Shown one piece after another: positions 1,129 to 46,757 of a stretch of DNA of 47,780 nt (its first letter is position 1; the number at the start of each line of letters is the position of its first letter). A program made the position numbers and the translations under genes. This DNA is from a virus. The notes below the pieces were generated by a model that saw only the letters and a list, made by a program, of their open reading frames with translations, searched no databases and was not told where the DNA came from. The stretch is from the IMG/VR virus record IMGVR_UViG_3300037313_000674, positions 1 to 47,780 of that record; one strand, 5' to 3'.

Positions 1129-1159
1129 TGTAGAAACTAACGAATGCAATCGTTCAACA
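1129..1159 (-). promoter_or_regulatory. TGTTGAA-N17-TTCAACA element copy (13/14 match)
   Basis: The minus strand reads TGTTGAA-cgattgcattcgttagt-TTCTACA. It lies in the intergenic gap upstream of the 918-1073 ORF. Confidence 0.5.
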
Positions 1160-1191
1160 AAAACCGCCAAATTTGGCCGCTGACGCGCAAA

Positions 1192-1764
1192 CTACCCCTC
1201 CGGATATACCGACGTAGCCGCCGCCTCCTTCAAGCGCGCCCTAGCCCTGAATTCTGGCTGTTTTGCCCCTATCCGATACACATACCTCGATTGACTTGCC
1301 GCTTGACCGCGATCAGCATGCTTTTCGTCAAACAGCCATGGCCGGTCAGGATCCTCGATCAAAGCGCGCCGTTCGAGCATGCCGAGATCACGGGCCTTCT
1401 GGTAAACCGTGAACTTCAATCCGGCCTTGCCGGTCTCGGGCAGGAGCTTCTGGAGTTGCGCAAACGAATACCATTTGTCCGGATCGGTTCGCGCTACCAG
1501 GCGTTCGAACAAACTATACCCGCCGGCCGCCGGTATCTTCTTCCGCTTCATCGCCTTCCGCTTTTTGGCCAGTTCCAAAAAGTCGAAGCCTCTCCGGTCC
1601 TTTTTCGTCCGCTTGGCTTTCCGGGCCGTGATCTCCGCTCTGAGCTTCGCCACCGCGGGGCGCTTCTTCGTCTTTCGGGCCAACGCCTTTGCTTTCGCCG
1701 CCTCGGTCTGCTTCACCGCCAACAAGGCGTCAGCCCGTCGGCGCATTTCCTCTTCATCGGCCAT
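1192..1764 (-). CDS. Basic protein (190 aa) with a K/R-rich N-terminus and a winged-helix-like C-terminus; candidate iteron-binding initiator
   Basis: ATG at 1764 has GGAGAAAAATAGAA upstream. The longer ORF-track start at 1953 would read through the iteron repeats. The initiator role is inferred only from its position next to the iterons. Confidence 0.7.
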   Translation of the reverse strand: MADEEEMRRRADALLAVKQTEAAKAKALARKTKKRPAVAKLRAEITARKAKRTKKDRRGFDFLELAKKRKAMKRKKIPAAGGYSLFERLVARTDPDKWYSFAQLQKLLPETGKAGLKFTVYQKARDLGMLERRALIEDPDRPWLFDEKHADRGQAASQSRYVYRIGAKQPEFRARARLKEAAATSVYPEG

Positions 1765-1852
1765 TTCTATTTTTCTCCAGTTCCAAAAAGTTCGGTTCAA
1801 CCGCTGCAAACCACGGGGGGGGTACGTAGTACCCACCCCCGGTGGGATTTGC

Positions 1853-2016
1853 GTCCAAGTGGTCCAAGTGGTCCAAGTTTCGGTCCAAGTGGTCCAAGTT
1901 TGGCCGCAAGCTGTTGATATGCATGCATTTTCCTGTAAACGACCGCGGTCCAAGTTTTTGCGGTCATTTTCCCAACTTGGACCACTTGGACCGCCTGCTT
2001 TTCGCTAGGTCCAAGT
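1853..2016. repeat. Iteron array: 9 copies of GTCCAAGT (7 direct, 2 inverted) flanking an AT-rich stretch; putative replication origin
   Basis: Direct copies are at 1853, 1862, 1871, 1883, 1892, 1948 and 2009. Inverted copies are at 1975 and 1984. The AT-rich, palindromic ctgttgatatgcatgcattttcctgtaaac lies at 1911-1940. Confidence 0.65.
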
Positions 2017-4011
2017 TGGGCTGTAAGTCCTTCTATTTGTTGGACCTTTCTTCGAAACACGCAGGCGTTTCTCCTTGACCAGGCTGTCCAGCCATTTGTT
2101 CGCCATCCGCGCCCCAAGAGGCTGCCTCGCCCCCTCGCCGTGAACCGCCACCAGCGCCCTGTTGAACATGTTCTGCGCATCTTGCCGGGTAAAGTTTGTG
2201 CTCTTTCCTTCTGCGGAAGCGTCATCGGCCGCGTCCATGATCGCTCTTGCAAACAGATCGCGATCCGACAGCTCGCCCTCGTCTTCAGGCATGTCGTCCT
2301 CGAATTCCGAAGCCGCCGAGCCGTATTCCAGCACCGCTGTCTTCCACGGGTTGCCCTCCGCATCGGTGCCGGCCTCCGTTGGCACGAGTTCGTATTCCGC
2401 GAGCAGGTCGATCTGCTCCAGGTCGCGTTGCCATTCGGTTTTGAGCATGCCCTTGCCGCGTTCCGTCGTTTCCACCTTGATCACGGTGTCGACGCCGCCC
2501 AGGAGCTTCTGGCTGCCCATCATGCCCTTGGTCGGGTCTTTGCCCGAGTGGTGGACAACGATGGCCGCGGCGCCCGTCTCCGCCCGGATAAGATCGACGT
2601 TGGCGACGAAGGCCATCATTGGCTCGCTGCTGTTCTCGTCGCCGACGAAGGCGCGCGACAGCGTGTCGATGACGATCACCGACAGGTTGGGAATCCTCTT
2701 GGCGATCTTGACGATCTCTTTGGCGTCCTCGTGGTTGCTGACGAGATCGAGCGTGGCGGGCATGAGATAGAATGGCGTGTCTTCCGGAACGCCGTACTTG
2801 GCGAACGCGGCCTCACGGCGAGCATGGATGCCGAGCCCGCCTTCACCTGCCACATAGAGCACTGCGCCTTTCGTCGTTTCGTATTTGCCGGCCCACGGGA
2901 TGCCGGCGGCGATGCATGTGCACATATCGACGATATTGAACGTCTTGGCCGTCTTGGGGGCGCCGTACGCCACGGCAAAGCCGTTCTGGTTGATCACCCC
3001 CTTGACCAGCGGCCGGATGACCGTGCTGCGCAAAAGCTCGCGCGAGGCCGTCGGGCCGATGACCTTGAACTTCGCGCGGCGGCCTTTGTCGTCTGCCGCC
3101 TTCTTCACCTCCGCCGGCACCGCCCCCACGCGAGCGATCTCTTCGGCCGTCGGCGCTTCCTGAGAGTTATCCCCGATATCCACAGGCTCGAAATCCGCGT
3201 GCGGTGTCTTTCCGCCCCATGTCCCGCTCGCATACGCGAACGCATTGGCGACCTTTATGGCCAGGTCTTCGGCCGGCCATGGCGGCTCGCACATGTCGGC
3301 CCATGGCCCGAGCACTTCGAGCGCCATGCCCTCGCTCAGCCCGAAGTCGCGCATCCGTGCGGCTGTCTTGTAGGTGAGTTCGTCGCCGCCTTCGCCTTCG
3401 ATGGCGACCGGCGCCATGTTCAGCCACCGGATTGCCTTCTCGATATTGGCCGGCAGGTCAAGCTCGATCACAGGCGCGTCGGTCTTGGCCTGATGCCGTG
3501 GCCGCTTTCCAAGGATCTCCAAAAACTCGGACGGCATCTCGGCGATGCCGCCGTTCGCAAGAACGGAATATTCTCCGTTCGGAAGCACGCTGCCGGCGCC
3601 GAGCACATACCCGTTCTCGCCCCTGATATCGATGCCGGGGAAGCCGTCGATGCTGTTGGCGCGGTTGGCGATCTCCCGATCGGTCCTGAGCAGAAGATGC
3701 CTGCCGCCTGACGGCGTGGCCGTGAGGAAGGAATCGGGCAGCACGTCGAGCATCAGGTCGGCCAGGCTGTCGAGACCTGGTTTCCCGTCCTTCACGTCCG
3801 CGTCGACCGCAACTATGCCCTTGCCGGTGGCGATGCCGATATTGTGCGTTCCCTCTCGCCACCAGGTGCGTACCTGCTTTTCGTCCGTGGTGGCGAGGTT
3901 CGGCCAGTCGTCCACGGCCGGCTTCTTCGTCCCTTCGACCACCGGGAACACCCGGATGCCCATGCGCGCATAGTGGAGCGCGAAATCGAGTTTCGTTCTT
4001 GGTTGAGACAT
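2005..4011 (-). CDS. Bifunctional primase-polymerase (Prim-Pol) fused to a RecA-like AAA_25/RepA-type helicase domain
   Basis: The N-terminus carries GIRVFPV..GTKKP..VAVDADV..GGRHLLL..IDIRGENGYVL (Prim-Pol motifs). The C-terminus carries YGAPKTAKT (Walker A-like) and VIVIDTLS (Walker B). Confidence 0.88.
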   Translation of the reverse strand: MSQPRTKLDFALHYARMGIRVFPVVEGTKKPAVDDWPNLATTDEKQVRTWWREGTHNIGIATGKGIVAVDADVKDGKPGLDSLADLMLDVLPDSFLTATPSGGRHLLLRTDREIANRANSIDGFPGIDIRGENGYVLGAGSVLPNGEYSVLANGGIAEMPSEFLEILGKRPRHQAKTDAPVIELDLPANIEKAIRWLNMAPVAIEGEGGDELTYKTAARMRDFGLSEGMALEVLGPWADMCEPPWPAEDLAIKVANAFAYASGTWGGKTPHADFEPVDIGDNSQEAPTAEEIARVGAVPAEVKKAADDKGRRAKFKVIGPTASRELLRSTVIRPLVKGVINQNGFAVAYGAPKTAKTFNIVDMCTCIAAGIPWAGKYETTKGAVLYVAGEGGLGIHARREAAFAKYGVPEDTPFYLMPATLDLVSNHEDAKEIVKIAKRIPNLSVIVIDTLSRAFVGDENSSEPMMAFVANVDLIRAETGAAAIVVHHSGKDPTKGMMGSQKLLGGVDTVIKVETTERGKGMLKTEWQRDLEQIDLLAEYELVPTEAGTDAEGNPWKTAVLEYGSAASEFEDDMPEDEGELSDRDLFARAIMDAADDASAEGKSTNFTRQDAQNMFNRALVAVHGEGARQPLGARMANKWLDSLVKEKRLRVSKKGPTNRRTYSPTWT

Positions 4012-4038
4012 CCGCCATGCCTTCTTGCTTGCTGAATT

Positions 4039-4077
4039 TGTCGAAAGAAAAAGCCCGCAAAATTCAACATTGCGGGC
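4039..4077 (-). promoter_or_regulatory. Element copy (13/14) overlapping a terminator hairpin, upstream of the primase gene
   Basis: The minus strand reads GCCCGCAA-TGTTGAATT-TTGCGGGC-TTTTTCTT-TCGACA. The TGTTGAA half-site sits in the hairpin loop and the partner TTCGACA follows 17 nt after it. The 16-mer AATGTTGAATTTTGCG is identical to the one in the copy at 35135-35165. Confidence 0.55.
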
Positions 4078-4090
4078 AAATAAAAAGCGG

Positions 4091-4659: not shown

Positions 4660-4747
4660 GATGGCCTCCAGGTTTCACTAAACCTGCCGAGCACTTCGCC
4701 GCGGACCCCTGAGAACATCAAAAACTTAGGAATTTCAAGGGTTTGGA

Positions 4748-4792
4748 TGGTGGGCGTGACAGGGATCGAACCTGTGACCCCTTCGGTGTGAA
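4748..4792 (-). other. attP core candidate: the 3' half of a tRNA gene (anticodon loop to CCA) with no 5' half
   Basis: The minus strand reads TTCACAC-CGAAG-GGGTC-ACAGG-TTCGATC-CCTGT-CACGCCC-A-CCA. This gives a T-arm, acceptor 3' strand, discriminator and CCA. The loop TTCACAC would give anticodon CAC (Val, tentative). No D-arm or complementary GGGCGTG is found upstream. Confidence 0.7.
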
Positions 4793-4918
4793 GGAACTGG
4801 TTTGTCGGGCGCGCGGTGCGCTGCTCGACGGAAAGCACTTTTTCCAATGGGTTACAGTGTGGGTGTTCGGCGCGCTTATGCATGTTTCCCGCTTTCTCCA
4901 GGTTCAGCGAACTTATGA

Positions 4919-5356
4919 TCACTTCGTATTTTGCTCCACCCAAGACACGACGGCGCCTTCAAATCTGAACCATTCGAGGGCATGACGATACTCGGCGAAA
5001 CGTTGGTGCAATTCGCGTTCAAGCACATGCCCGTCGCCCTCGGTCAGCACCGTCAATAGCTCTAGCGGGTACGGATTCGCGGCTCTAAGCGAGTTTAAAC
5101 GCTTTTGAACATCGCCGGCCTTGCCAATTTTCACATAGTCGCCGCAACGGATTACATACACGTCGCATGGCTCGCGGCCAGGGGTATCGAAGTTTTCCTC
5201 AAACGCATTCGCATCTTCGGGACGGACGCGGACCATGGTCTTACCGATTGTGATTGCCGGCAATTCGCCGGTGCGGATCAAGGTCAGCACCATAGTCGCC
5301 GAACAATTCCACCTATCCGCCAACTGCGCCGGCGACAGTAAAGACGCCATTTTCAA
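4919..5356 (-). CDS. Excisionase-like HTH (HTH_17/MerR-type) fused to a T5orf172/MUG113 (GIY-YIG superfamily) domain
   Basis: The N-terminus reads LSPAQLADRWNCSATMVLTLIRTGELPAITIGKTMVRVR. The C-terminus reads VYVIRCGDYVKIGKAGDVQKRLNSLRAANPYPLELL...ERELHQRFAEYRHALEWFRF. There is an ATGA overlap with the int stop. Confidence 0.8.
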   Translation of the reverse strand: MKMASLLSPAQLADRWNCSATMVLTLIRTGELPAITIGKTMVRVRPEDANAFEENFDTPGREPCDVYVIRCGDYVKIGKAGDVQKRLNSLRAANPYPLELLTVLTEGDGHVLERELHQRFAEYRHALEWFRFEGAVVSWVEQNTK

Positions 5357-6363
5357 ATCTCCAAACTATCCGCCAAGTCCCGCAAATGGCCGGGGCTGTA
5401 GCGGGCGTAAACTTTCTCTGTGATTCTGCTGTCGGAATGCCCCAGGAACTGCGCGATCCTGGTCATCGTGTGGCCGTCTTCGGCCATCCACACCGCCGCG
5501 CTGTGGCGTAGCACGTGCGGTGTCACGCCTTCGAGCTTCGCCGACTTCGCCGCCGCCCGGATGCCCGTCTTGATCGATGCCACCTGCGCGCCGGCCCATT
5601 CGATCACATAGGGCGACAGCGCGGCCTGCTTGGCGAGTAGCAGCGCATCGCGCAGGCTGTTGTTCATCGGGACTGTCGCGCGGCGCTTGCGCTGCGTGAT
5701 GTCCTCCACATTGGTCAGCGAGATCGTGTTGCGGTCGAAGTCGACGCGCAGCCACGTCAGCTCGAGCGCGGCCGAGACACGGGCGCCGGTTCCGATCATC
5801 AGCCGGATCGCCAGCGCGATATGCGGCACCTTGGCGTGCTCTATCAGCTTGCGCACTTCGTCGCGCGTCAGGTAGCGGTCCTTCGGCGCCGGCTTCGATG
5901 GCCGCTCGATCTTCGGCGCATCGGTGATCAGCTTCGCGTCGCGTGCCCATACCAATATCGATCGGAGATGGCCGAGTTCGGTATGCACGGTTCCGACGCT
6001 CTTGCCGGTGCCGTACCGCTCGACGGCGTAGAGCCGGCAAAGGTCGGTCGTGATCTGGCCGGGATCGAGCTTGCCGAACGTTGGCGCGAGTGCCTTCCAT
6101 GTGTGGGCCATGGTTTGGAGTACGACCTTGCCGGCCTTGTCCTTCTGGTAGCCAGCCCACAGGTCTGCGACAGTCCGGCCTACCGGCCGCGTGAGTTCCG
6201 CGTATCGAGCCGCGGCAAGCGCTTTCGCTTCTCGGGCGTCGGAAGTTCCAAGACGGTAGCGCCGCCGTGTAGATCGTCCGTCGGGCTGCTCTTCGTCCCA
6301 GGCAACGCAGAATTCTCCGTTGAGCCTTGTGAGCCGCCATTCGAGTTCGTCGGATTTTTGCAT
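5353..6363 (-). CDS. int: Tyrosine integrase (phage integrase family)
   Basis: The sequence contains TGARVSAALELTW, HVLRHSAAVWMAEDG and LGHSDSRITEKVYARY (R...HxxR...Y catalytic pattern). The N-terminus is arm-binding-like. The gene is adjacent to the tRNA-fragment attP. Confidence 0.92.
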   Translation of the reverse strand: MQKSDELEWRLTRLNGEFCVAWDEEQPDGRSTRRRYRLGTSDAREAKALAAARYAELTRPVGRTVADLWAGYQKDKAGKVVLQTMAHTWKALAPTFGKLDPGQITTDLCRLYAVERYGTGKSVGTVHTELGHLRSILVWARDAKLITDAPKIERPSKPAPKDRYLTRDEVRKLIEHAKVPHIALAIRLMIGTGARVSAALELTWLRVDFDRNTISLTNVEDITQRKRRATVPMNNSLRDALLLAKQAALSPYVIEWAGAQVASIKTGIRAAAKSAKLEGVTPHVLRHSAAVWMAEDGHTMTRIAQFLGHSDSRITEKVYARYSPGHLRDLADSLEI

Positions 6364-6512: not shown

Positions 6513-6997
6513 TTCGGATCCATCTCCAAAGCGTCGAGCAGAAGGTCGGTGACCGCGCCGCAGACTTCCGGCCCGCTCAGATTCTCCCGCCGCAATTCGT
6601 TGACCTTGTCGAGCACGTCGATCAGCAAGCCTTTCGACGCCAGCCCGACCACCAGTCCCTGCGCCGCGGCGACGCGAACGACGTTGGCGAAGCTCGGCGC
6701 GCGCTTCGAGCTTTTCCAGTTCTCGACCGTGAACCGGCCGAGTTTGGCGTCGGTGGCGCGCTCTGCTTCGGAGCAGTTTTCCATCAAGGTCTTGATGACG
6801 GGATGCATGGTCGATTTCCTTGCCGCACGGGGGCGCAGTTGCTTGGAGTATGTGTAATTGGCGAGCGTGTCGTAGTTGACGCCGGCCAGTTCCGCGACAC
6901 GGGTAAGCGGCATGTTGGCCGGGTAGCGGGCGAGCAGGTTTACATAATAGGACCGCTTGCTCGGTCTTCCACTTGGCCGTCCAGTCGGTTTTGACAT
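6509..6997 (-). CDS. Hypothetical protein (162 aa) with an N-terminal HTH-like segment; first gene of the int operon
   Basis: The sequence begins MSKPTGRPSGRP...MPLTRVAELAGVNYDTLANY. It is divergent from the small regulator at 7110. Its start codon overlaps a TGTTGAA half-site. Confidence 0.65.
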   Translation of the reverse strand: MSKPTGRPSGRPSKRSYYVNLLARYPANMPLTRVAELAGVNYDTLANYTYSKQLRPRAARKSTMHPVIKTLMENCSEAERATDAKLGRFTVENWKSSKRAPSFANVVRVAAAQGLVVGLASKGLLIDVLDKVNELRRENLSGPEVCGAVTDLLLDALEMDPK

Positions 6998-7038
6998 GTT
7001 GAATTTGACCCTCATAAAAACTTCTACATTTTTCAACA
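6997..7038 (+). promoter_or_regulatory. Divergent control region with half-sites TGTTGAA (6997), TTCTACA (7022) and TTCAACA (7032)
   Basis: TGTTGAATTT...TTCAACA occurs with a 28-nt spacer, which is 17 + 11. A TTCTACA variant follows at an 18-nt spacer. The region lies between the 6997 (minus) and 7110 (plus) gene starts. Confidence 0.5.
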
Positions 7039-7044
7039 ATTACT

Positions 7045-7073
7045 CTTGCCTTTCGACAAAGACAAGCTATAAG
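7045..7073 (+). promoter_or_regulatory. Sigma-70-type promoter candidate for the rightward early operon
   Basis: CTTGCC-N16-CTATAAG resembles the rhizobial CTTGAC-N17-CTATAT consensus. It lies about 35 nt upstream of the ATG at 7110. Confidence 0.35.
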
Positions 7074-7109
7074 AGCGTTACACATCGACAAATTTTTCGG
7101 AGTTGGCGG

Positions 7110-8559: not shown

Positions 8560-8590
8560 CGCTGAATTTAGCGAATGAAATTGATCAACA
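8560..8590 (+). promoter_or_regulatory. Degenerate element copy (11/14): CGCTGAATTTAGCGAA...ATCAACA
   Basis: It has the same 17-nt spacing and a TTTAxCGAA extension like the copies at 10453, 14062 and 46727. A further TGTTGAA at 8601-8607 abuts the ATG at 8608. Confidence 0.35.
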
Positions 8591-8607
8591 ATATAGGTGA
8601 TGTTGAA

Positions 8608-10452: not shown

Positions 10453-10483
10453 TGTTGAATTTAACGAACCAAAATCTTCAACA
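10453..10483 (+). promoter_or_regulatory. Perfect element copy TGTTGAA-N17-TTCAACA
   Basis: The sequence is TGTTGAATTTAACGAACCAAAATCTTCAACA. It lies in the 50-nt gap upstream of the ATG at 10502. Confidence 0.6.
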
Positions 10484-14026: not shown

Positions 14027-14061
14027 ATCTGTCGCGGCCGGCGGTTCGCTGTCGGCCGCGA

Positions 14062-14092
14062 TGTTGAATTTAACGAAGGAGATTTATCGACA
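14062..14092 (+). promoter_or_regulatory. Element copy (12/14): TGTTGAATTTAACGAAGGAGATTTATCGACA
   Basis: The RBS GAAGGAG lies in the spacer. The right half-site ends on the A of the ATG at 14092. Confidence 0.5.
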
Positions 14093-17953: not shown

Positions 17954-18946
17954 TTAATCGTCCAGCCGCTCGGCCAAACATGCCGCTGAGTGATGGCCGT
18001 ACACGCGCTCGACAGTCTGTATCGTGTCGCCGAGCAGTTTCGCCACATCGAACACTGATTTTCCCTCTTGGAGTAGGTGGGAAGCCCTGGTGTGCCGCAT
18101 GCAATGCGGATTGGCGCGATCAGCCATCCCAAGCCCTTCAAGAAGCTCACGATATGGGGCATAGAAATCGGCCCGCTGAAACAGCCGTTCGTTCGGGCTC
18201 GACAGCCACAGCGCATGCAATGGCGCTTCCATCTTCTTCAGGATAGGCACGATCGGCTGCCGCTTCTTGGTCGTGATCTTGCCGGGCAGTTGCAGGGTGA
18301 TTCGGCGCGTCTCCCAATTGACCTGCGACCGGCGCAGGTTCTCGATTGATGCGCGGCGCGCGCCCGTGTAATAGAGCAGCTTCACGAAATGCTCCAGTTC
18401 CCCGCCGCCCTGCGACGCCGCCCAAAAGATCCTGGCAAGCTCTTCCCGGCTGTAATAGGACGCTTCGTCGTCATAGCCGATCAGCTTCTCGTGCGGGTAT
18501 TCGATCGATGGCATGGCCAGAATGCGCTTCCAGCGCAGCGCATGCTTCGCTGCCGCGTGCAGCACGGCCAGTTCCCGTTTGATCGTGGCATCGCTGCCGG
18601 TCTTGTCTTTGCGCTTCGCGCCGCCACCGATCTTCCCGGAGCGTCGAACTTCTGCGTATTCTCTTGAATGAACTATATCGATATCTTCAACAGCGCGGCT
18701 GCCGAAAAACGCCTTCAGGTGCTTGACGATATTGTCCCTGCGCTCGGGGTCGGCAACGCGATGCTCAAGACAATACTGGTCGAGCATGTCGCTCACAGCA
18801 AGTCTTCGAGGCCCTTTTCGTCGATCGACGGTCGGCTCAAAAGTCGTGCTCGAAGGGACCGGGCGGCTTCGAGTCTTGCCGCTATCGTCTTTCCAGTAGA
18901 GCCGGAACGTGCCTTCTTCGGTTTGGCGGATTTCCTGGCCACGCAT
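17954..18946 (-). CDS. Second tyrosine recombinase (phage integrase family)
   Basis: The sequence contains LLYYTGARRASI, HCMRHTRASHLLQEG and LGDTIQTVERVYGHH. It lies immediately downstream of the XRE gene. Confidence 0.88.
   Translation of the reverse strand: MRGQEIRQTEEGTFRLYWKDDSGKTRSRPVPSSTTFEPTVDRRKGPRRLAVSDMLDQYCLEHRVADPERRDNIVKHLKAFFGSRAVEDIDIVHSREYAEVRRSGKIGGGAKRKDKTGSDATIKRELAVLHAAAKHALRWKRILAMPSIEYPHEKLIGYDDEASYYSREELARIFWAASQGGGELEHFVKLLYYTGARRASIENLRRSQVNWETRRITLQLPGKITTKKRQPIVPILKKMEAPLHALWLSSPNERLFQRADFYAPYRELLEGLGMADRANPHCMRHTRASHLLQEGKSVFDVAKLLGDTIQTVERVYGHHSAACLAERLDD
18662..18692. promoter_or_regulatory. Intragenic element copy (13/14) inside recombinase 2
   Basis: The sequence is TCTTGAA-tgaactatatcgatatc-TTCAACA. 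It sits in an AT-rich island within otherwise GC-rich coding sequence. Confidence 0.4.
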
Positions 18947-19415: not shown

Positions 19416-19442
19416 CTCAACAAAAATCAACAATGTCCAACA
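19416..19442 (-). promoter_or_regulatory. Three direct TGTTG(G/A)N half-sites phased at exactly 10 bp, between promoter and RBS of the XRE gene
   Basis: The minus strand reads TGTTGGAcatTGTTGATtttTGTTGAGGATATTTATG. Plus-strand copies start at 19416, 19426 and 19436. Confidence 0.5.
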
Positions 19443-19469
19443 TCTAGTGGACAAAAGCTAATTTTGCAA
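19441..19469 (-). promoter_or_regulatory. Sigma-70-type promoter candidate for the XRE/recombinase operon
   Basis: On the minus strand the sequence is TTGCAA-N17-TAGATG. The -10 overlaps the first TGTTGGA half-site. Confidence 0.35.
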
Positions 19470-19500
19470 GAGGCTATTTTTCAGAACGACACCGTACAAT

Positions 19501-22635: not shown

Positions 22636-25600
22636 TTGCCGACCTCTGTCGAACGTTTTTGATCGTTATTTTCTACACTATCCGGTTGACGATTTCCAGA
22701 TGCGGCCGCGAGCAGTTTGTTGAGCCTGGCGTTCCATGCCGGCGTGCCGATTTCCTTGACGTTGCGGGTCAAGAGGTGCTGCGCCAAGTCAGGATTGAAC
22801 CACAGATCGGTCAGAATGTGCTCCACGTCCTGCGTTTTCGTGCTCATGCTGCCGATCGCGTCAGCAAACAGGCGAAGCGTGCGCGTGACACCGCCGCCCT
22901 TCAGGACGCCGTAATGGGCCTTGGTTGCGGCCTCGATCATCCGCCACCGCTTCGACGACGTATCTTTGGCCGCAGAAAGAAAGTTCTGGAACGTGTCGGA
23001 TCCGCCCGTCACCTTCACGTCCAGGTTGGCGGCCACGTCGAGCAGCTTGTGCGCCTGCCGGAGGCTGTTCATTTCCTCCGGCGTGTAGACCTTGGCCAGC
23101 GTCTGCTCGTGCTTGGCAAACAGGCGATCGAGCGCCGCACGGCTGAACTTTTCGGTATCGGGGAAGCCGACATTCTTGCCGGTCGTCGACGCCCTGCCGG
23201 TGATCCAGTCGCGCACGGCGGCCTTCAGGCCATCGGTCGCTTTCTGGTCGCCGCTGAGCCGCGCCACGAGATCGCCCATCTTCTTCGCCGGATCGCCAGA
23301 GCCCATAATGCTGGCGATGGTGTTTTCCGGGTCGTTGCCGATGGCGTGTTGCAATGCCGATCGGCGCAGCGTGTCTTCGGTCATGCCGAGATTCTGCTGC
23401 GCATACTGGACATCCATGGCCAATTGCCGCGATAGACGGCCGCCTTGATCGGCACGGGCCAATTCCTGATCGACGCGCTGCCGAAGGGCCGGAAACTGGT
23501 CGATCACCGCCTGCCGGTCACGCGCCCATTGGCGCATCCGGTCATAGCGAAGCTCGCCATTGCCGTTGAGCACGTTCGATTTGGCCAAATCACCGAGCAT
23601 CCATTCGGTTGCGTTTTGCGCCGTCACCGGGTTGCCGTTGACATCGATGGCGCGCTGCAGGGAATTGGCGTCTTCGGGCTTGGCCAGGAACTTCTGCGCA
23701 AACTCGCTCGGGCGCGTGGCGCTGCTTTCGTCGCCGGTCTTCACGGCACGTTTTAGCTGCTGGCTGTATTCGCCGGCCTTGCCGGTGCGGAACCGGGGCG
23801 CGAAATTGTTGGCGTAGTTGGCCGCCGCTTGCGGATTGACGGCATCGATGCGGTCGGCCAGCATGGCGTTCAGCTTGTCGATCTGCGTCACGTCCCGGCC
23901 GGCGGCGACTGCGTCCTTGCGCATCGCGCCAACGTCAGTCTTGAGCACCTTGAGATCGCCATATGTCAAATCCCGGAAGGTCATTTCGCCGGTCTCGGGG
24001 TCGACCTGCTGCACCAGCCCGCGAATGCGGCCGAGCGCATTGGCGTAGTCGGTTCCTTGCTGCGCGGCCCGTGGCACGGTGGCATTGATGTCGTCGAGAG
24101 CTGCGCTGATGTCGGCGCCATCGATGGCCGTGTTTTGAGGAACGGCGTCGTAGAGCGCGTTCTTCTCGGCGGTGGCGGCTTCGTTCTGATTGCGAAATTC
24201 GGTGTCAAGAGCGGTCGACCGTTCCGGCTGCCGGCGGCGCGCTTCCTCTAGCATCGCATTCTGCGCGTTGATGTCCTGCGTGCCTTGCGCTTCAGCCACG
24301 CGCGCCGTTTCGAGCTTGTTCCGGGCTGCGCCAAGGGTGTCGTCATACTGCCGGGTCATGGCGTTGACCATGTCCTGGCTCTCGGCCTGCGCCGGCACGG
24401 TTGATTTGATCTTGTCGGATGCGAGCGCGTTGCGCGCTGCGTCGCTCTCGGCGAAGCGCTGCGGATTCTTGGTCCGCGCCACCTTCTCGTTCAGGGACAT
24501 GCCGATGTCGTTGGCGAGCATGCCGGTCGTCGGCATCTGGTCGGCGTTGGCGAACTGGCCAAAATCCTGCTTGGCGGCTTCAAGGTTGGCGACGGTCTTG
24601 CCGGTGTCGGTCGGCATGTTCTGCGCGATGCGCGCAGCCATGTCCATTTCGGACGGCTTGAACGCCTTGTTCGTCGCCGGGTTGACTGGCGTGCTCGGGT
24701 CCGTGAACATGCCGAACTTGTCCGCGGCGAAGTCTCTCGCGTTGGAAATCGTGCTGTCGACCAAGGCGTGGCCGGCTGAATTGATCGTCGCGCCGGCATG
24801 CGCGCCCATCAGCGCAGCGGCGATCTGACCGAGCGGACCAAGCTTCTCTTTCAGCCAATCCGGGACATATTCGTTGTAGCCTTCCGACGTGACGCCGGCC
24901 GTCGTCCCTGCCAATGCGTCTCCCATCAGCGCCTTCGACGGATTGACGGCATATGGTGCTTCCATCGTCGCCAGGATTCCGCTTTCGGCCGGAGCCGCGG
25001 CGTTCTTGGCGGCCAATGCGCCACCAGCGAGCAACGCCCCGGTGCCGAACCGCAAGCCGGTGCCGAGCAGCCGGTCCTGCGCCGACACATCGTTCGGGCT
25101 GATCTGCATCGACTGGTCTTCCGGCACAGCGCCGGTCATGTGCCCGATGGCGTCTTCGGCGGAAATGCGCTTCTGGTTGAGCCAATCGGACGAGCCCGGC
25201 AGCGACGCCGGGATGCGGGTGTCGACATTGCCGCCGAACAGATTGGCGACCTTGTCCGCGCCCCAAAGAGCGGTATTGCCGAGCAGGCTCGACAAATCCA
25301 CTGGCGCGCCAACAATGTCGAGCGGCGCCTTGGCCATCTGCTGCAGCTTGTAGGTAGCCGGGTCGTTGAGGTCGTTGCGTTCGCGATAATTCTGGTTGAC
25401 CATGTCCTTCAGGGACTGGTCGGTGATCTCGGCTTTCGGCACTTCCGCGCCGATCGATGCAGGTGCATCGAACATCCCGGCCGTCGGCGTGACCGAATTG
25501 ATGGCGTTGTGCTCAGATTGCTTGGCGACTTCCTGTTGGCCAATCGTATTGAAGATGTGCTCGGCTTCAATAGCCTGCTGGTCCGGAGAGAGGGCCAAAA

Positions 25601-32434: not shown

Positions 32435-32465
32435 TGTTGAACAACATTTGTCGATAGTTTCAACA
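32435..32465 (-). promoter_or_regulatory. Perfect element copy inside the late operon
   Basis: The minus strand reads TGTTGAA-actatcgacaaatgttg-TTCAACA. An 11-12 bp hairpin (32393-32427) and a third TTCAACA just before the RBS follow. Confidence 0.6.
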
Positions 32466-35134: not shown

Positions 35135-35165
35135 TGTTGAACAACATTCTTCGCAAAATTCAACA
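35135..35165 (-). promoter_or_regulatory. Perfect element copy between portal and scaffold genes
   Basis: The minus strand reads TGTTGAATTTTGCGAAGAATGTTGTTCAACA. It is followed by the hairpin ACAGCG...CGCTGT and the RBS AGGAG. Confidence 0.6.
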
Positions 35166-42508: not shown

Positions 42509-42539
42509 TGTTGGTCAATCTCTTGCGTTATATTCAACA
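42509..42539 (-). promoter_or_regulatory. Element copy (12/14) at the head of the late operon, in the divergent gap with the M15 gene
   Basis: The minus strand reads TGTTGAATATAACGCAAGAGATTGACCAACA. The left arm closely resembles the TGTTGAATTTAACGAAGGAG copies. Confidence 0.45.
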
Positions 42540-42564
42540 TCAAACCGCAACGAAGGGCAGCGAA

Positions 42565-43275
42565 ATGGCCGATCTTTACAGCATTCTCGCCAAAGGACAG
42601 CCAACGTCCTACATTTCCGACCTCAACCCGGCTTTTTCGTCGGAGATGTCACGCATGCTCGACGCGATGCCCGAAAATCTGCGCGGCCAGGTGTCTATTT
42701 TCTCCGGCGCGCGGTCGAACGAAAAGCAGGCCCAACTTTGGCAAGCGGCGCTGGCCAAATACGGTTCTCCGGGGGCCGCGCGGCATTGGGTAGCCCCTCC
42801 GGGACACAGCCGCCACAACGAAGGGCTCGCGAGCGACCTTCGTTTCGCGTCTCCGGACGCCGAAAAATGGGTTCACGCCAACGCCACAAATTACGGGCTT
42901 ACCTTTCCGATGGCGCATGAGCCGTGGCACATCGAACCTGTCGGCGCGCGAGATGGAACCCTCGCCAAAAGCATGCAAAACGCACTGGCCGACCCGACAA
43001 TGCAGCCGGTTTCGCCGATGGGAATGCCGCAACAGCCGATGAACGATGTTGTTCAGCAAAAACCGGAAATTTCACCGCTCGGCGGCGTGCTTGCGGGCTT
43101 CATGAACGGCATGAACCAGCCATCGGGCGGGCCGACCGTCACCAAGGACACGAGCCCGCAAACGGCGATGCTCGCAGCCGGGCTTGCCGACCGTGGCCGG
43201 CAACTGAACACGGCGTTCCTGCCGAATGTCGATAACCTGCTAGCCATGCCGAAACGGCCGGCGGTGCTTAGCTAA
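42565..43275 (+). CDS. Peptidase M15 (VanY / L-Ala-D-Glu peptidase type) endolysin candidate with a low-complexity C-terminal half
   Basis: The sequence contains SGARSNEKQAQLW, PGHSRHNEGLASDL and HEPWHIEP, giving an H..D..H zinc-ligand pattern. Confidence 0.8.
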   Translation: MADLYSILAKGQPTSYISDLNPAFSSEMSRMLDAMPENLRGQVSIFSGARSNEKQAQLWQAALAKYGSPGAARHWVAPPGHSRHNEGLASDLRFASPDAEKWVHANATNYGLTFPMAHEPWHIEPVGARDGTLAKSMQNALADPTMQPVSPMGMPQQPMNDVVQQKPEISPLGGVLAGFMNGMNQPSGGPTVTKDTSPQTAMLAAGLADRGRQLNTAFLPNVDNLLAMPKRPAVLS

Positions 43276-43468: not shown

Positions 43469-43776
43469 GGGAACGGCCGATTAAGCTTGACGTTTTTCTG
43501 AACGCGCAGCGGCCATAGCGACTTTGGACTAATTTTCCCGATCCGGCAACGCCGGACCCATCGGTTTATCACCTCTTCGGGAGCACAGCACTCCCGCAAC
43601 GCGCCAGTTTGCACGTCGGCAATTTCCTTGATCGTAAAACCCATCTGAAAATCTCCATCGAAAAGTGCCAGTTTTGCGTCCTTTTCCGGATCATATGACG
43701 ACGCATACCAGATACGCCGCGCGGCGGGACCGGAGGGTTCTTCACCCGCGAGGAAATCGCCTTGTGCCCGGACCAC
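43462..43776 (-). CDS. Hypothetical protein, possibly HTH-containing (104 aa; alternative 60-aa form from ATG 43644)
   Basis: The sequence contains MGFTIKEIADVQTGALRE.... GGAGA lies 8 nt upstream of the internal ATG. Confidence 0.45.
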   Translation of the reverse strand: MVRAQGDFLAGEEPSGPAARRIWYASSYDPEKDAKLALFDGDFQMGFTIKEIADVQTGALRECCAPEEVINRWVRRCRIGKISPKSLWPLRVQKNVKLNRPFPW

Positions 43777-43839
43777 CGGCCGACACCCACACTGGCGAGA
43801 GGCGCCGGGGAATATCCCCGCCGCTTGAATTTGGTTGTT

Positions 43840-44097
43840 TCAGCACCTCACCCTGCGCTGCGACAGGAACGACAGCGGCACCACCTGCCCGTCCGGCGTG
43901 ACCAGCAGTATCAGCGACGGCATTTCGAGCTTGCCGGTCGTGCATTTAGGCTCGCGCGTCGTGCTGTTCGGCAGTTTCTCGAACACCTGCGGCTTGACGG
44001 GCGCGGTCGCGGCGTGCGCCAAAAGCGCTATGCCGAACAGCCACACCAGCAGGGAAAACGTGATTATTCCAATCCAGGCCCACACTTTCGATCGCAT
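43840..44097 (-). CDS. Small N-terminally anchored membrane or periplasmic protein (85 aa) downstream of the sigma gene
   Basis: The sequence begins MRSKVWAWIGIITFSLLVWLFGIALLAHA and continues with a roughly 55-aa soluble part. It starts 3 nt after the sigma stop. Confidence 0.6.
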   Translation of the reverse strand: MRSKVWAWIGIITFSLLVWLFGIALLAHAATAPVKPQVFEKLPNSTTREPKCTTGKLEMPSLILLVTPDGQVVPLSFLSQRRVRC

Positions 44098-44100
44098 GTT

Positions 44101-44580
44101 TCACCCCTCATAGCCGGTCAGTTCGGCCAATCTCTTCTGACCCCGGTGGACGCGGCTCTTGATCGTGCCGACCGGAACGGCCTGCAGCGCGGCCATTTCT
44201 TCATATTCATGCCCGAGCCCGTAAAGCACGAGCGTGTCGCGCATGGGCGCCGGCAAGTCGTTCAGCCGGACGAAGACCTGCTTGGCTGCGAGCGCGGCTT
44301 CCGGGTCGTCTTTCGCCGGCAGCATTTCGATCACGAGATCGTCCGGCTCGGCCATCAGGTGGCGCTTGCGCGTCGTCTGCGTGATGAATTCGTTTCGGCA
44401 GATCGTCGTCAGCCAACCGGCCATGTTCGACCCCGTCTGAAACTGATGCTGGCGCTCAAGGGCCCTGGCGAGCACGTCCTGCATGAGGTCGTCGGCGCGG
44501 TCGGCGTTCCGGGTCAGCCGGAGCGCGTAGCTGCGGAGTTTCTTAGCGTGATGCAGCAGTTCGTCCGCGAAATCGGCCAC
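44101..44580 (-). CDS. ECF-type sigma-70 family RNA polymerase sigma factor (159 aa)
   Basis: Region 2 reads DLMQDVLARALERQHQFQTGSNMAGWLTTICRNEFI. Region 4 reads LPAPMRDTLVLYGLGHEYEEMAALQAVPVGTIKSRVHRGQKRLAEL. The GTG start follows AAGGGGA. Confidence 0.88.
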   Translation of the reverse strand: MADFADELLHHAKKLRSYALRLTRNADRADDLMQDVLARALERQHQFQTGSNMAGWLTTICRNEFITQTTRKRHLMAEPDDLVIEMLPAKDDPEAALAAKQVFVRLNDLPAPMRDTLVLYGLGHEYEEMAALQAVPVGTIKSRVHRGQKRLAELTGYEG

Positions 44581-44681
44581 CTGGAAATCCCCTTCTATCG
44601 ATCGGCGGGGCCGATGCCGTGAGGTTTGCCACCGGCCCCGCTTCCATCAGCCCGTCCCGTGCGGCGGCGACCGGGCTGGTT

Positions 44682-44833
44682 CGTGATTTCGAAGCTGCGC
44701 GGCGCGTTCGGGATCGAACCGGGACACCCTCACTATCGCCAAACTCAAGACCTACCCGCCCTTGTCGGGTCGTCGGTCACGGGGTTCACTGATACCCCCG
44801 CCAAGCAAGCGGCCGCGCAGCCACGAAATCACG
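44682..44833. repeat. Long-range inverted repeat, 22 nt per arm (20/22), enclosing 108 nt of hairpin-rich sequence
   Basis: The arm cgtgatttcgaagctgcgcggc (44682-44703) pairs with the reverse complement of gccgcgcagccacgaaatcacg (44812-44833). The only mismatches are the central 2 nt. Confidence 0.75.
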
Positions 44834-44843
44834 CTGTTCAAAG

Positions 44844-44939
44844 AGACCGGCCCGCCATCCGTGTACGGGGGAGGAGGGGACTTTTGGCAGGCCGGTCTTA
44901 GCTTCCAGTTTGCGCGGGAGGAGGTGCGCGGTCTGGAAG
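44844..44939 (-). ncRNA. Candidate sRNA module with two hairpins each carrying CCUCCUCCC (cuckoo / CcsR / alpha-r14-like)
   Basis: Minus-strand RNA hairpin 1 (44902-44939) is CUUCCAG..GCGC-A-CCUCCUCCC-GCGC..CUGGAAG. Hairpin 2 (44844-44898) is AGACCGGCC...CCCCUCCUCCCCC...GGCCGGUCU. No plausible ORF is present in the 370-nt gap. Confidence 0.45.
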
Positions 44940-44950
44940 AAACTTGTGTT

Positions 44951-45259: not shown

Positions 45260-45310
45260 CGGTCTTGCTTTCTGTCTCGTTGAACGTTTTGTTGATCGAA
45301 TGTCGATCAA

Positions 45311-45341
45311 TGTTGAAATGTGTAGAACAGAAAATTCAACA
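45311..45341 (-). promoter_or_regulatory. Perfect element copy upstream of the gp49-like / sRNA / sigma unit
   Basis: The minus strand reads TGTTGAATTTTCTGTTCTACACATTTCAACA. Confidence 0.6.
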
Positions 45342-45498
45342 AAGCAATAGGGTTTTTTAGTTTCAGAAAATAAAAAATTAGTGCGTCAGGGCTGCAGGCT
45401 GTAGCTACTCGGCCGGCGGCCACCCCCAGGGGGCGGGGGCCGGCCCACTGGCCGACCTGGCGGCGGATTGCGCATTACCGCCTGAGACAGGCTGTATT

Positions 45499-46071
45499 TC
45501 ATTCAAGTAAATCAGATAGATAGTCGTCGATGATCTGCGTTTGGCCACGGTTTTGGCCGCGTTTTGCGGCCTTTTCGGGCTCTATGTCCACTATACTGGA
45601 CATCGCTTCGGCCTTTTTCCGCTCTAAATCGACTATCAGGCGATCGATCGCGTCAACGTCGAGCGCGCCGTTGCCCCTCCGCATTGATTCCCGGAAGCGA
45701 TCGACGGCCAGATTTGCATGCTCCTGCAGCCTGGCAGCCGCCTGGACGCGCGCGGCCGGCGGCGCTGATGCCTTCTGAACGATCTGCATTTGGGCCTTGA
45801 TCGCCGCCGGGAAAGCCACCGCGTTAAGGTACTGCATGCCCATAATCTGCATGGCGCGGGCAAAGCTTGGGGCCGCTTGAATCGTAGATAGGTCAGCATT
45901 GCTGACGTATCCGGAACGGATTAATGCAGTTGCATCTAATTCGTTTTGTAAAAGCTGCCATGCCAGTATCGCCTCGCGCACGGAAATGCCCAACGCTGCG
46001 CATTCATCCTCACTCCAAGGAAAAACGCTGTTGGTTGGCAGCGCGATTGATTTAGCTGCGTTATTTTTCAT
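45499..46071 (-). CDS. Hypothetical protein (190 aa; alternative start 46116); first leftward gene from the four-half-site hub
   Basis: The ORF is long and predicted helical. The function is not recognised. It could be a regulator or a small terminase, but there is no evidence for either. Confidence 0.6.
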   Translation of the reverse strand: MKNNAAKSIALPTNSVFPWSEDECAALGISVREAILAWQLLQNELDATALIRSGYVSNADLSTIQAAPSFARAMQIMGMQYLNAVAFPAAIKAQMQIVQKASAPPAARVQAAARLQEHANLAVDRFRESMRRGNGALDVDAIDRLIVDLERKKAEAMSSIVDIEPEKAAKRGQNRGQTQIIDDYLSDLLE

Positions 46072-46089
46072 AAAAAGCCTATTGCCTTT

Positions 46090-46140
46090 TGTTGAACATT
46101 GTTGAATACTGACCATGCATCGTAATTCAACATTTCAACA
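46090..46140. promoter_or_regulatory. Hub of four perfect half-sites: TGTTGAA x2 (46090, 46100) and TTCAACA x2 (46126, 46134) in the divergent control region
   Basis: The sequence is TGTTGAAcatTGTTGAAtactgaccatgcatcgtaaTTCAACAtTTCAACA-GGAGcaacgactATG. Confidence 0.65.
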
Positions 46141-46152
46141 GGAGCAACGACT

Positions 46153-46482
46153 ATGCAAACCCTCGCCACCATTTACGAATTCCGCACCGCCAATTTCATC
46201 GTCCGCGTCGACGCGCTTGAGGAGATCGACCTCGATCTCCCTTGGGACGATACCGGCGAAGTTGCCGAGAAGCTCGACAACGGTCAGCTTGTGGCGTTCT
46301 GCGCCAAAGCCGCCGTGCTGTTCCGCGGCACTGAGATCGGCGCCGACTATCTCGGTAACTGCATCTATGAGAGCTTCGACGGCTTCCGCCACGATAGCGG
46401 CTATTTCCACGATATGGTCAGCCTCGCCATCCGCTCGGCACGCGATCATTTCAAAGACCTGCCTGCCTTGCGGGCTGCATAG
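46153..46482 (+). CDS. Hypothetical acidic protein (109 aa); first rightward gene from the hub
   Basis: AGGAG lies 8 nt upstream of the ATG. No motif was recognised. Confidence 0.65.
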   Translation: MQTLATIYEFRTANFIVRVDALEEIDLDLPWDDTGEVAEKLDNGQLVAFCAKAAVLFRGTEIGADYLGNCIYESFDGFRHDSGYFHDMVSLAIRSARDHFKDLPALRAA

Positions 46483-46496
46483 GCGAGTTAGCCGCC

Positions 46497-46724
46497 ATGA
46501 CCTTCAAAGCCCGCCTCAAACACCTGCAACAAAGGTTCCCCAACCTGCAAATCGTCCTCCGCAATCCGTCCGACAAGGCCGCCCGTATAACCTACGCCAG
46601 CGCGGGCTGTCACATCGAAGGCTGGCTCTATGAAAATGGCTCTTGCCGCTTCGAGCTGGTCGCCATCAACAGCGCTGAATGCGCTGAGCAATTGCTTGAA
46701 ATTGTTCACGCTATTCAGGGCTAA
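46497..46724 (+). CDS. Hypothetical protein (75 aa)
   Basis: The ORF shows coding-like codon usage. No motif was recognised. Confidence 0.55.
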   Translation: MTFKARLKHLQQRFPNLQIVLRNPSDKAARITYASAGCHIEGWLYENGSCRFELVAINSAECAEQLLEIVHAIQG

Positions 46725-46726
46725 CG

Positions 46727-46757
46727 TGTTGAATTTAACGAAAGGAGTTCTTCAATG
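46727..46757 (+). promoter_or_regulatory. Element copy (12/14): TGTTGAATTTAACGAAAGGAGTTCTTCAATG
   Basis: The RBS AAAGGAG lies in the spacer. The right half-site contains the ATG at 46755. Confidence 0.5.

Follow-up and report, generated by a model that had tools for sequence, protein, structure and literature searches.

Cluster A mycobacteriophages, the relatives of L5 and D29, carry stoperators, which are single asymmetric sites of 13-14 bp present in many copies, mostly in short intergenic gaps, oriented to transcription and found again at the early lytic promoter, together with an immunity repressor of the gp71 type, a monomer with helix-turn-helix (HTH) and stirrup domains (PMC9283540, PMC6550527). 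A network of dispersed sites that appears to work in a similar way is described here from the window, a stretch of 47,780 nt that is the full length of IMG/VR record IMGVR_UViG_3300037313_000674, in which a 7-bp box recurs mostly as an inverted pair, TGTTGAA-N17-TTCAACA, hereafter the N17 element. On balance we consider it probable, though far from secure, that the element is recognised by a single regulator, a sequence-specific DNA-binding protein that is itself probably phage-encoded, which would repress early promoters and act between cistrons as set out below. Other dispersed or paired phage operators offer points of reference. The C1 repressor of phage P1 acts on operators distributed throughout the genome, certain of which are asymmetric single sites, and silences many units together; the classical operators of lambda, 434 and P22 are palindromes 14-18 bp long, whose half-sites are spaced by about one helical turn and which cluster at divergent immunity promoters; and the sites of protein p4 of phage phi29 are inverted repeats about 15 bp apart, bound by a small DNA-bending dimer.

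Like the Cluster A stoperators, the element is a short asymmetric site in many copies, lying mostly in short intergenic gaps and oriented to transcription, whose sequence stands also at an early lytic promoter (here a predicted one) and differs among related phages, which in Cluster A are heteroimmune. The preliminary description of this DNA, made from the sequence alone, had drawn this parallel from the asymmetric, orientation-biased arrangement; the dispersed layout and the presence of the site in early regulatory regions are in keeping with it, and the conservation and co-variation reported below lend it added support. The host phylum and the phage group are nonetheless unrelated; the site here is a 7-bp box, mostly an inverted pair 17 bp apart with an inner half-box, instead of a single 13-14 bp site; the copies are fewer, about 12 composites against roughly 24 or more in L5; and no gp71-like protein emerged when three candidates were searched against PDB sequences. 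Because of this differing site architecture and the lack of a gp71-like protein, we speak of something that would work like a stoperator network and not of a member of that family. With P1 C1 the proposed arrangement shares one regulator serving many dispersed operators, but P1 operators stand at promoters of separate operons, not in intercistronic gaps, and both sequences and protein are unrelated. It resembles the phi29 p4 system (PMC3100819) in its short inverted repeats, over one helical turn apart, that would act at several promoters, whereas p4 sites are few and all at promoters, and the p4 protein is unrelated.

The window is the genome of a temperate phage, 60% G+C, with about 62 genes on a map built from codon-position G+C and codon usage and a non-coding share of 8%. 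Among relatives with usable sequence the closest is a Mycoplana azooxidifex prophage (NZ_JACIEE010000015.1; 72% identity in the capsid protein and 75% in DNA polymerase), and to judge from this prophage the phages compared here are alphaproteobacterial. The four perfect copies of the element first listed have the coordinates originally given (Table 1), and a chance origin is contradicted by their complete absence from 100 dinucleotide-preserving shuffles. At up to three mismatches there are 12 copies with the N17 spacing, against a shuffle mean of 1.23 and a maximum of 4, and the eight imperfect copies of the preliminary description are exactly recovered among them. Three copies have one identical 16-mer in common, and a search of IMG/VR for the exact 16-mer TGTTGAATTTAACGAA gave 83 single matches, none of them in related phages; N17 matches with at most one mismatch number seven in the 47.8-kb window and five in 2.64 Mb of other fetched loci, all five of the latter in loci chosen because they carried the 16-mer. 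The heptamer TGTTGAA occurs 27 times where 4.2 are expected, and a comparison of coding with non-coding DNA places the element predominantly outside genes (21 of the 27 heptamers are non-coding). Convergent pairs of boxes with at most one mismatch give a spacing histogram with a sharp peak at N17 (8 pairs, against one or two at any other spacing), and direct repeats at the same threshold peak at 9-10 bp. Clusters of variant spacing had also been noted and are present at 6997-7038 (N18) and at 46090-46140 (N19, four perfect boxes). The statement that the element marks gene starts around the whole genome went too far: it precedes only about a dozen of the genes.

Oriented by local genes, the 12 copies yield the consensus TGTTGAAttTA.CGAa..A.aTt.TTCAACA, with an information content of 10.9 bits in the left arm, 9.0 in positions 8-16, 4.0 in positions 17-24 and 9.4 in the right arm. 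The informative inner block (the extension ttTA.CGAa) resembles a second, weaker box (xxCGAA) 9 bp past the first, and the resulting composite (box, N2-3, weaker box xxCGAA, about 8 nt, inverted box) occupies about ten short intergenic gaps. Boxes are thus found in convergent N17 pairs, in direct repeats about 10 bp apart and in N3 palindromes, and the recognition unit looks, from these geometries, like a single 7-bp box used in several arrangements, of which the 31-bp palindrome is one. Compared with a classical dimeric operator, the boxes do cluster at two divergent regions, but the main half-site distance is 24 bp, and only three N3 palindromes were found (at copies 32465 and 18692 and in a Mycoplana orthologue; minus-strand copies are named here by their left-arm end, the higher coordinate). 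The inner side faces downstream in 11 of the 12 copies. The extension was at first thought to be absent at 1129 and 32465, yet both carry a variant, ACTAWCGA (ACTAACGAA and ACTATCGAC), that is standard in the Mycoplana relative; once it is recognised at 1129, that copy opposes the local genes (beside it the real gene is clearly 1192-1764, on the minus strand), so that the orientation rule stands for 11 of 12 copies and is not universal, and the orientation at 6997 is ambiguous.

Ten composites either overlap a gene end or occupy a gap of 30-132 bp, and at 10453, 32465, 46727, 8560 and 35165 they begin 2-7 nt past the upstream stop codon and take up most of the gap. Measured from the first base of the left arm, the ATG follows at 29 to 88 nt across copies. 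The earlier placement of nearly all copies in gaps just upstream of start codons agrees with most of them, the exceptions being copy 18692, inside the integrase gene 17954-18946, whose functional role is doubtful, and copy 22677, in the last codons of a 1005-aa gene. A ribosome-binding site in the spacer with a start codon in or abutting the right arm had been noted for three copies, correctly so for 14062, 46727 and the minus-strand gene at 6997, where the spacer contains the Shine-Dalgarno sequence and the right arm meets the ATG.

Table 1. Coordinates of the element copies, control regions and candidate binding proteins in the window.
Feature	Position	Strand	Context
N17 element, 1 mismatch	1129..1159	+	between two minus-strand genes; extension ACTAACGAA on the plus strand, against transcription
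N17 element, 1 mismatch	4039..4069	-	before primase/helicase gene (start 4011)
Early divergent control region	6997..7090		boxes TGTTGAA 6997, TTCTACA 7022, TTCAACA 7032, TTCGACA 7052, ATCGACA 7084
N17 element, degenerate, 3 mismatches	8560..8590	+	after RuvC-like gene, before HNH endonuclease gene; extra box 8601-8607 abuts ATG 8608
N17 element, perfect	10453..10483	+	TGTTGAATTTAACGAA...TTCAACA; fills gap between helicase gene (stop 10451) and gene 10502-11122; Mycoplana orthologue L100:3003
N17 element	14062..14092	+	directly past 15-bp GC-rich hairpin (14030-14061) downstream of GapR-like gene
N17 element, 1 mismatch	18662..18692	-	within coding sequence of integrase 17954-18946; N3 near-palindrome TGTTGAAGATATCGATA
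Candidate binder 1	18950-19408	-	152-aa Cro/CI-type HTH protein adjoining integrase; Pfam HTH_3, PHROG 'transcriptional repressor', weak RstR/DicA-like matches
Boxes at HTH_3 gene	19416..19470	-	three direct boxes, 10 bp apart: TGTTGGA 19442-19436, TGTTGAT 19432-19426, TGTTGAG 19422-19416
N17 element, 2 mismatches	22647..22677	-	last codons of 1005-aa gene, 11 nt before ATG of gene 22084-22635
N17 element, perfect	32435..32465	-	two genes downstream of major capsid gene, after gene 32467-32937
N17 element, perfect	35135..35165	-	between portal gene and next gene 34076-35101, which precedes major capsid gene
N17 element, 2 mismatches	42509..42539	-	divergent gap between 41881-42432 (-) and VanY-like gene 42565-43275 (+); orthologous stretch L004:779
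N17 element, perfect (45311-45341), with phased boxes	45278..45341	-	upstream of gp49/66-family gene and sigma-factor operon, downstream of terminator-like hairpin
Candidate binder 2	45499-46071	-	190-aa all-helical protein, transcribed leftward from four-box cluster
Second divergent control region	46082..46140		four perfect boxes: 46090 and 46100 forward, 46126 and 46134 reverse
N17 element	46727..46757	+	fills 30-bp gap before gene 46755-47417; AGGAG in spacer; ATG in right arm (TTCAATG)

The boxes recur at promoters, all of which are consensus predictions throughout this text. Upstream of the 70-aa Cro-like gene (7110-7322) the window reads TTCTACA-TTT-TTCAACA-ATTACT-CTTGCC-T-TTCGACA-AAGACAAGC-TATAAG, in which the predicted promoter P_R (TTGCCT 7046-7051, 16 nt, TATAAG 7068-7073) has one box abutting its -35 hexamer upstream and one in its spacer. 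The Mycoplana P_R has the same layout with identical box positions and spacings (10 and 19 bp), and the P_R core ACAAWTACTCTTGC-N8-AA-N3-CAA, used as a search pattern, recovered the promoter, amid chance matches, from about ten related phage contigs, in every one of which a Cro-like gene lies downstream. A protein bound at the -35 edge and in the spacer would exclude RNA polymerase, and the DNA there is untranscribed. At the second divergent region the spacer of a predicted rightward promoter (TTGCCT 46082-46087, 17 nt, AATACT 46105-46110) is filled by the two forward boxes, and the orthologous 82-bp gap of Mycoplana reads TGTCGAA...TTCTACA...CGACA. The direct boxes of the HTH_3 repressor-like gene span from the predicted -10 to its ATG (CTTGCA 19470-19465, 17 nt, CTAGAT 19447-19442); the related locus L121 has a homologous promoter, CTTGCA-N17-CTATCT, before its HTH_3 homologue, with TGTCGAA boxes upstream. 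That the boxes would mediate repression at early promoters is well supported by their position at these predicted promoters.

Conservation of the element in related phages was examined in about ten phages and prophages, designated by the labels of the fetched related loci (L002, L003, L100, L101, L121, L181 and so on), and the element was found at orthologous junctions, each phage with its own box variant. A first scan of the relatives with the heptamer of the window, TGTTGAA, found nothing, because they use TGTCGAA, as alignments of orthologous gaps revealed. The variants are TGTTGAA, TGTCGAA, TGTYGGA and TGTCGCC, and each phage uses one of them at both kinds of site. In the window P_R has TTCAACA and the intercistronic copies TGTTGAA (21 T-type and 2 C-type boxes in non-coding DNA); in Mycoplana P_R has TTCGACA twice and the intercistronic copies TGTCGAA (9 C-type and 1 T-type); L186, L187 and L223 likewise pair TTCGACA at P_R with TGTCGAA; L101 pairs TCCAACA at P_R with TGTCGGA after its GapR gene; and L184/L185 have GGCGACA and AGCGACA at P_R and, between cistrons, TGTCGCC-RTY-TGYAGC...ACGACA-ATG. 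L182 and L189 have TTTTTWAAAA in the P_R spacer instead, and L182 has a related sequence again after its helicase gene.

The junction past the GapR gene illustrates this conservation most fully, since in four phages (the window, Mycoplana at L100:6699, L101:8593 and L185) it keeps the order hairpin, box, inner box, ribosome-binding site, inverted box and ATG, although the downstream genes are unrelated and the box variant is phage-specific. In the window the spacer of copy 14062 holds GGAG and the element ends on the A that opens the ATG of gene 14092-14250; in Mycoplana a hairpin, which has no U tract, is followed by TGTCGAAAGAAACGATCACTGGAGACCTACA and the ATG. The element is retained also, again with differing genes downstream, after the helicase gene of Mycoplana (L100:3003: TGTCGAAACTATCGAA...ATCGACA, in fuller form TGTCGAAACTATCGAAAAGAATCTATCGACA), upstream of gp49, where a box cluster precedes the gp49 homologue at L003:293, and before the primase-like gene of Mycoplana (TGTCGAAACTATCGAAAACAGAGGATCTACAAATG); the same TGTCGAAACTATCGAAAACAGAGGATCTACAAATG is the orthologue of copy 46727 at the high-coordinate end of L181 (about 2949-2979). 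Mycoplana further has the element ahead of the gene following the portal gene, boxes in the gap by its homologue of 45499-46071 and, by alignment, TGTCGAAGGTATCGACA at the place orthologous to 32435, and the alignment of the 35165 junction shows CTTGAC, TGTCGAA and an AATAAA-like hexamer kept in Mycoplana, L002 and L003. Co-variation of the box, together with the presence of boxes in untranscribed promoter DNA, points to a DNA-binding regulator of evolving specificity and speaks against an ECF sigma promoter, an RNA hairpin or chance, and the coherence within genomes combined with divergence between them ties the intercistronic copies to the promoter operators.

Among the regulators put forward in the preliminary description, two stay candidates for the binder (18950-19408 and 45499-46071) and two are now unlikely (7110-7322 and 6509-6997). 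The first has a homologue in L121 (39% identity) that lies beside an integrase homologue, with boxes before both genes, and the second a homologue at the same position in Mycoplana (34% identity). No family, PDB or fold match was obtained for 45499-46071, Foldseek returning nothing below E = 0.7 for its low-confidence AlphaFold model; the single-sequence models had a predicted local distance difference test score (pLDDT) of 63 for this protein and of 57, again low confidence, for 6509-6997. Searches of PDB sequences at E up to 1 gave no match for 45499-46071, 46153-46482 or 6509-6997; Pfam, PHROG and NCBIfam recognised in the candidates only a generic HTH_3 in 18950-19408, homology to gp71 not being evident; and 46153-46482 has no homologue in the fetched loci, which include the Mycoplana relative incompletely. 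Almost nothing usable came from searching for homologues of the sigma factor and of the 70-aa and 190-aa proteins, an exhaustive search for the 70-aa Cro-like protein giving eight representatives. This Cro-like protein is an unlikely binder, its recognition helix being nearly the same in phages whose boxes differ, L182 and L189 (without a spacer box) among them. The 162-aa protein 6509-6997, left of P_R, is unlikely as well, the gene there being unrelated in every phage; it is part of an inserted integrase module. So is the 190-aa basic protein 1192-1764, whose C-terminus is winged-helix-like by eye but whose homologues adjoin phage-specific iterons. Separately from the boxes, an inverted repeat CTTGC-N13-GCAAG (CTTGCC...GACAAG in the window, 7045-7070) brackets the P_R spacer and is invariant in about ten related phages whatever the box variant, a conserved 67-80-aa Cro-like gene always being next; this repeat is likely, from its conserved position, to be the operator of the Cro-like protein.

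A protein of the host might be the binder instead, the phage then using the boxes to read the state of its host through a global regulator and the box variants mirroring different hosts. We think this unlikely, although several observations agree with it: no phage protein tracks the box variant, the boxes persist although the gene beside P_R differs in every phage, and the Cro-like protein is conserved while its recognition helix does not follow the variant. The strategy itself exists. To our knowledge Spo0A is confined to endospore-forming Firmicutes, whereas the phages considered here are alphaproteobacterial, but its 0A box, TGTCGAA, is identical to the box of the relatives and occurs in the Bacillus phages phi29 and Nf, in early promoters and in single and varied arrangements (PMC2731898). 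This identity is almost certainly coincidence. A literature search for the box sequences gave no alphaproteobacterial regulator with this box, and no paper on phages of this kind. We know of no such regulator ourselves, and, compared by eye, none of the motifs of CtrA (TTAA-N7-TTAA), LexA (GAAC-N7-GAAC), sigma-54, sigma-32, DnaA (its box), IHF, Irr (the ICE box), parS or CcrM (GANTC) fits. Moreover, three of the seven box positions vary among close relatives, more than expected for an orthologous host factor.

Whether bound by a phage or a host protein, the boxes would be operators; they might alternatively be promoters, read by the extracytoplasmic function (ECF) sigma factor of the phage (44101-44580) or by an activator replacing the -35, and restart transcription for each cassette. 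The orientation with the genes in 11 of 12 copies and the position upstream of genes would fit, as would the terminator-like hairpins ahead of 4069, 14062 and 45341, the resemblance of the N17 spacing (rarely N18 or N19) to a -35/-10 spacer, the sigma gene itself and the A-rich hexamer (AAGAAT, CAAAAT) that often follows the inner box. That hexamer is, however, merely 7-10 nt from the left box, and the ribosome-binding site or ATG lies inside the element at 14062, 46727, 6997(-) and their orthologues, where transcripts begun 7 nt beyond the right arm would miss the gene. Each arm is the exact reverse complement of the other, unexpected of a -35 plus a -10; boxes also form direct arrays (phased at 10-12 bp, 45278-45327 and 19416-19442), which like the N3 palindromes suit a protein-binding box and not a promoter, and sit in the spacers of ordinary promoters. 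Mycoplana has the elements yet no sigma gene between its gp49 homologue and its VanY-like gene, which are about 380 bp apart, and tblastn found no sigma homologue in any related locus (the Mycoplana prophage being searched minus about 6 kb). A scan for ECF-type motifs, and hence for target promoters of the sigma factor, gave nothing convincing. A sigma-70 promoter was rejected in its own right, for TTGAAT as -35 gives TCAACA as -10, without the key A2 and T6, and a -35 at the right distance is found only at 35165 (a conserved CTTGAC 5 nt upstream) and weakly at 45341. The early assertion that the element is not the promoter of the gene it precedes is borne out by the ribosome-binding sites and start codons inside three copies, by arms that do not fit a sigma-70 -10 and by the lack of a usable -35 at most copies, and we rate a promoter function as quite unlikely.

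The proximity to start codons raises another explanation, that the element acts in the mRNA, either as a translational operator or as a ribosome standby or RNase site encompassing the Shine-Dalgarno sequence, on the lines of the targets of T4 RegA or of the start-associated sequences of Cluster K mycobacteriophages. Pope and colleagues are said to have described the latter in 2011, as start-associated and extended start-associated sequences, a repeat upstream of many start codons. As there, a conserved repeat stands directly before starts, sometimes with an imperfect inverted repeat ahead; the Cluster K repeat includes the ribosome-binding site, and its function is unproven, whereas here the ribosome-binding site is outside the conserved core, the box occurs also in untranscribed promoter DNA and the distance to the start is variable. 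Sense orientation is kept at the left-arm distances given above, ribosome-binding sites are embedded in three copies and in orthologues of three other phages, and the element is AU-rich in a genome of 60% G+C. We nevertheless hold action in the mRNA to be very unlikely: the same box variant stands upstream of a -35 and in the P_R spacer, which are untranscribed, and in both orientations; the hairpin formed by the arms is weak, about -4 to -5 kcal/mol against -2 to -4 for shuffles (within about 1-2 standard deviations); mismatched copies show no compensating changes; and the element has no Rfam match. The GC-rich hairpins that flank some copies are separate from the element.

Nucleotide homology between the window and Mycoplana ends at or within a few bases of four elements (8553/8560, 10441/10453, 14026/14062 and 42519/42509), and this coincidence suggests that these elements also mark joints of exchangeable cassettes. 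The repeats could have no regulatory role of their own, being linkers for recombination or what a small mobile cassette left behind; the homology breaks would agree with that, and so would longer flanks in common, such as TTTTTATTTGCC before the box both at 4069 and at the post-GapR element of L101, and the 16-mer identical in three copies. Such an origin, which we find highly improbable, leaves unexplained the fixed box positions in conserved promoters, the strict N17 geometry and the single variant per phage, and the copies have no terminal repeats or target duplications.

We therefore return to a single DNA-binding regulator, whose mode of action may be pictured as follows. With the regulator present, for example in a lysogen, the promoter boxes would be occupied and initiation shut off, the targets suggested by box position being P_R (7046-7073), the rightward promoter (46082-46110) and the start of the HTH_3 gene transcript, and a box would likewise be bound in the spacer of the internal promoter that precedes the gene between the portal and major capsid genes (TTGACT 35175-35170, 18 nt, AAGAAT 35151-35146, a predicted sigma-70-type promoter whose spacer holds the left box of 35165). 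On the intercistronic composites the regulator would obstruct RNA polymerase arriving from upstream or silence weak internal starts, and by analogy with the stoperators a block of elongation at these copies is plausible. At 14062 and 4069, where the composite lies just after or within a GC-rich hairpin, the two might together form a protein-dependent terminator, a speculation that extends to a more elaborate proposal: the composites might be protein-dependent intercistronic switches, in which the regulator bridges inverted boxes 24 bp apart over the ribosome-binding site, in some cases just past a GC-rich hairpin without a U tract, terminates transcription, sets which cassettes are expressed and marks the joints of cassette exchange, the binder belonging to a family without a recognisable DNA-binding signature, such as 45499-46071. 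We regard this last scheme as rather unlikely.

Several points weigh against a phage-encoded regulator of this kind. Among the candidates searched, none was identified as the binder and none has a sequence that tracks the box variant in the data compared, and a host factor of host-specific specificity would yield identical co-variation. The promoters cited are all consensus predictions. One copy (1129) opposes transcription and another (18692) is within a gene. With their centres 24 bp apart, two boxes face different sides of the helix, which is unusual for a simple dimer. Action at the mRNA level is conceivable for elements placed just upstream of or over ribosome-binding sites and start codons, and three copies (4069, 14062 and 45341) come after terminator-like hairpins, where a new promoter would be expected.

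Some copies have further features of their own. The left arm of 4069 is the loop of a terminator-like hairpin, GCCCGCAA-TGTTGAATT-TTGCGGGC, followed by TTTTTCTTT. The copy at 32435-32465 includes an N3 palindrome, TGTTGAA-ACT-ATCGACA, and a GC-rich hairpin then precedes gene 31968-32378. Beside 45341 the phased boxes read, on the plus strand, CGTTGAA 45278, TGTTGAT 45290, TGTCGAT at about 45301, TGTTGAA 45311 and TGTAGAA 45321. At 8560 the N17 element marks the upstream edge of an HNH_3 homing-type endonuclease gene (8608-9156) inserted between the RuvC-like and helicase genes, which are 38 bp apart in the Mycoplana prophage, where the HNH_3 gene is lacking. The GapR-like nucleoid protein ahead of 14062 is encoded at 13742-14026 (Pfam GapR_DNA-bd, E = 7e-28) and has homologues in most related phages and in Caulobacter phage BL94.

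The genome that carries the network encodes a primase/helicase, a helicase, an exonuclease, a single-stranded DNA-binding protein and a DNA polymerase for replication, besides two integrases, the Cro/CI-type HTH protein, the GapR-like protein, the ECF sigma factor and a head-and-packaging module, and has no close cultured phage, the best capsid match in any of them being 41% identity. Both ends of the window fall in one pentapeptide-repeat gene (1-358 and 47529-47780) of about 40 units of fifteen bases (GGGGCCRACCTGYRC), and the shared gene and the overlap of the end sequences indicate that the contig is probably a closed circle opened within the repeat. A second sequencing run holds an identical copy, whose contig stops at window position 4763. 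Of several short DNA matches to the Caulobacter phages BL94, RapA and Jess A, the strongest is that of window 2-297 to their pentapeptide-repeat gene (87-89% identity), which for BL94 is the sole strong match. The primase/helicase gene and the basic-protein gene 1192-1764 are separated by iterons at 1765-2004, about eight copies of GGTCCAAGT in both orientations, which, with the basic protein as initiator, probably constitute the replication origin; a phage of the L003 type has a different iteron (CCCCCACTT) at the matching position. Replication iterons were also considered for the boxes and rejected, the boxes being dispersed and the separate repeat beside the primase gene having that role.

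The two tyrosine integrases differ in their company. Integrase 17954-18946, whose gene forms a pair with the HTH_3 gene behind that of DNA polymerase, is common to the relatives L121 and L103; integrase 5353-6363 belongs to an insertion that separates P_R from the primase gene and that also brought a T5orf172 gene, a DUF1643 gene and the 162-aa protein. Near integrase 5353-6363, a fragment resembling the 3' half of a tRNA (4734-4794, in the gap 4660-4918) is 87% identical to L121:1365-1425, which adjoins the integrase module of L121; no complete tRNA was found, the identical contig of the second run ends inside the fragment, and the region is probably attP. The ECF sigma gene and a small membrane-protein gene (43840-44097) are flanked by two gene-free stretches of about 370 bp, and as a whole this block (43469-44950), of which the Mycoplana prophage has nothing at the syntenic position, may have been acquired as a module. 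No homologue of the 929-aa open reading frame 39095-41884, which has the 183-aa gene 41881-42432 on one side and the large terminase gene on the other, occurs in the relatives (the DNA of Mycoplana is unrelated there), and the frame gives only a weak match to a beta-helix and one to a virion protein in its last 235 residues.

Operator networks that silence a prophage genome-wide, beyond repression of its promoters, are well documented only for Cluster A mycobacteriophages and, in other form, for P1. If the proposal is true, the window and its relatives would provide an independent case, in an uncultured group of alphaproteobacterial temperate phages and with a different site architecture. The variants TGTTGAA, TGTCGAA, TGTYGGA and TGTCGCC would then form a natural specificity series, in which the co-evolution of repressor and operator and the origin of heteroimmunity would be directly testable, and the elements would serve, in annotating these phages, as landmarks for the boundaries of transcription units and for the joints of their mosaic genomes.

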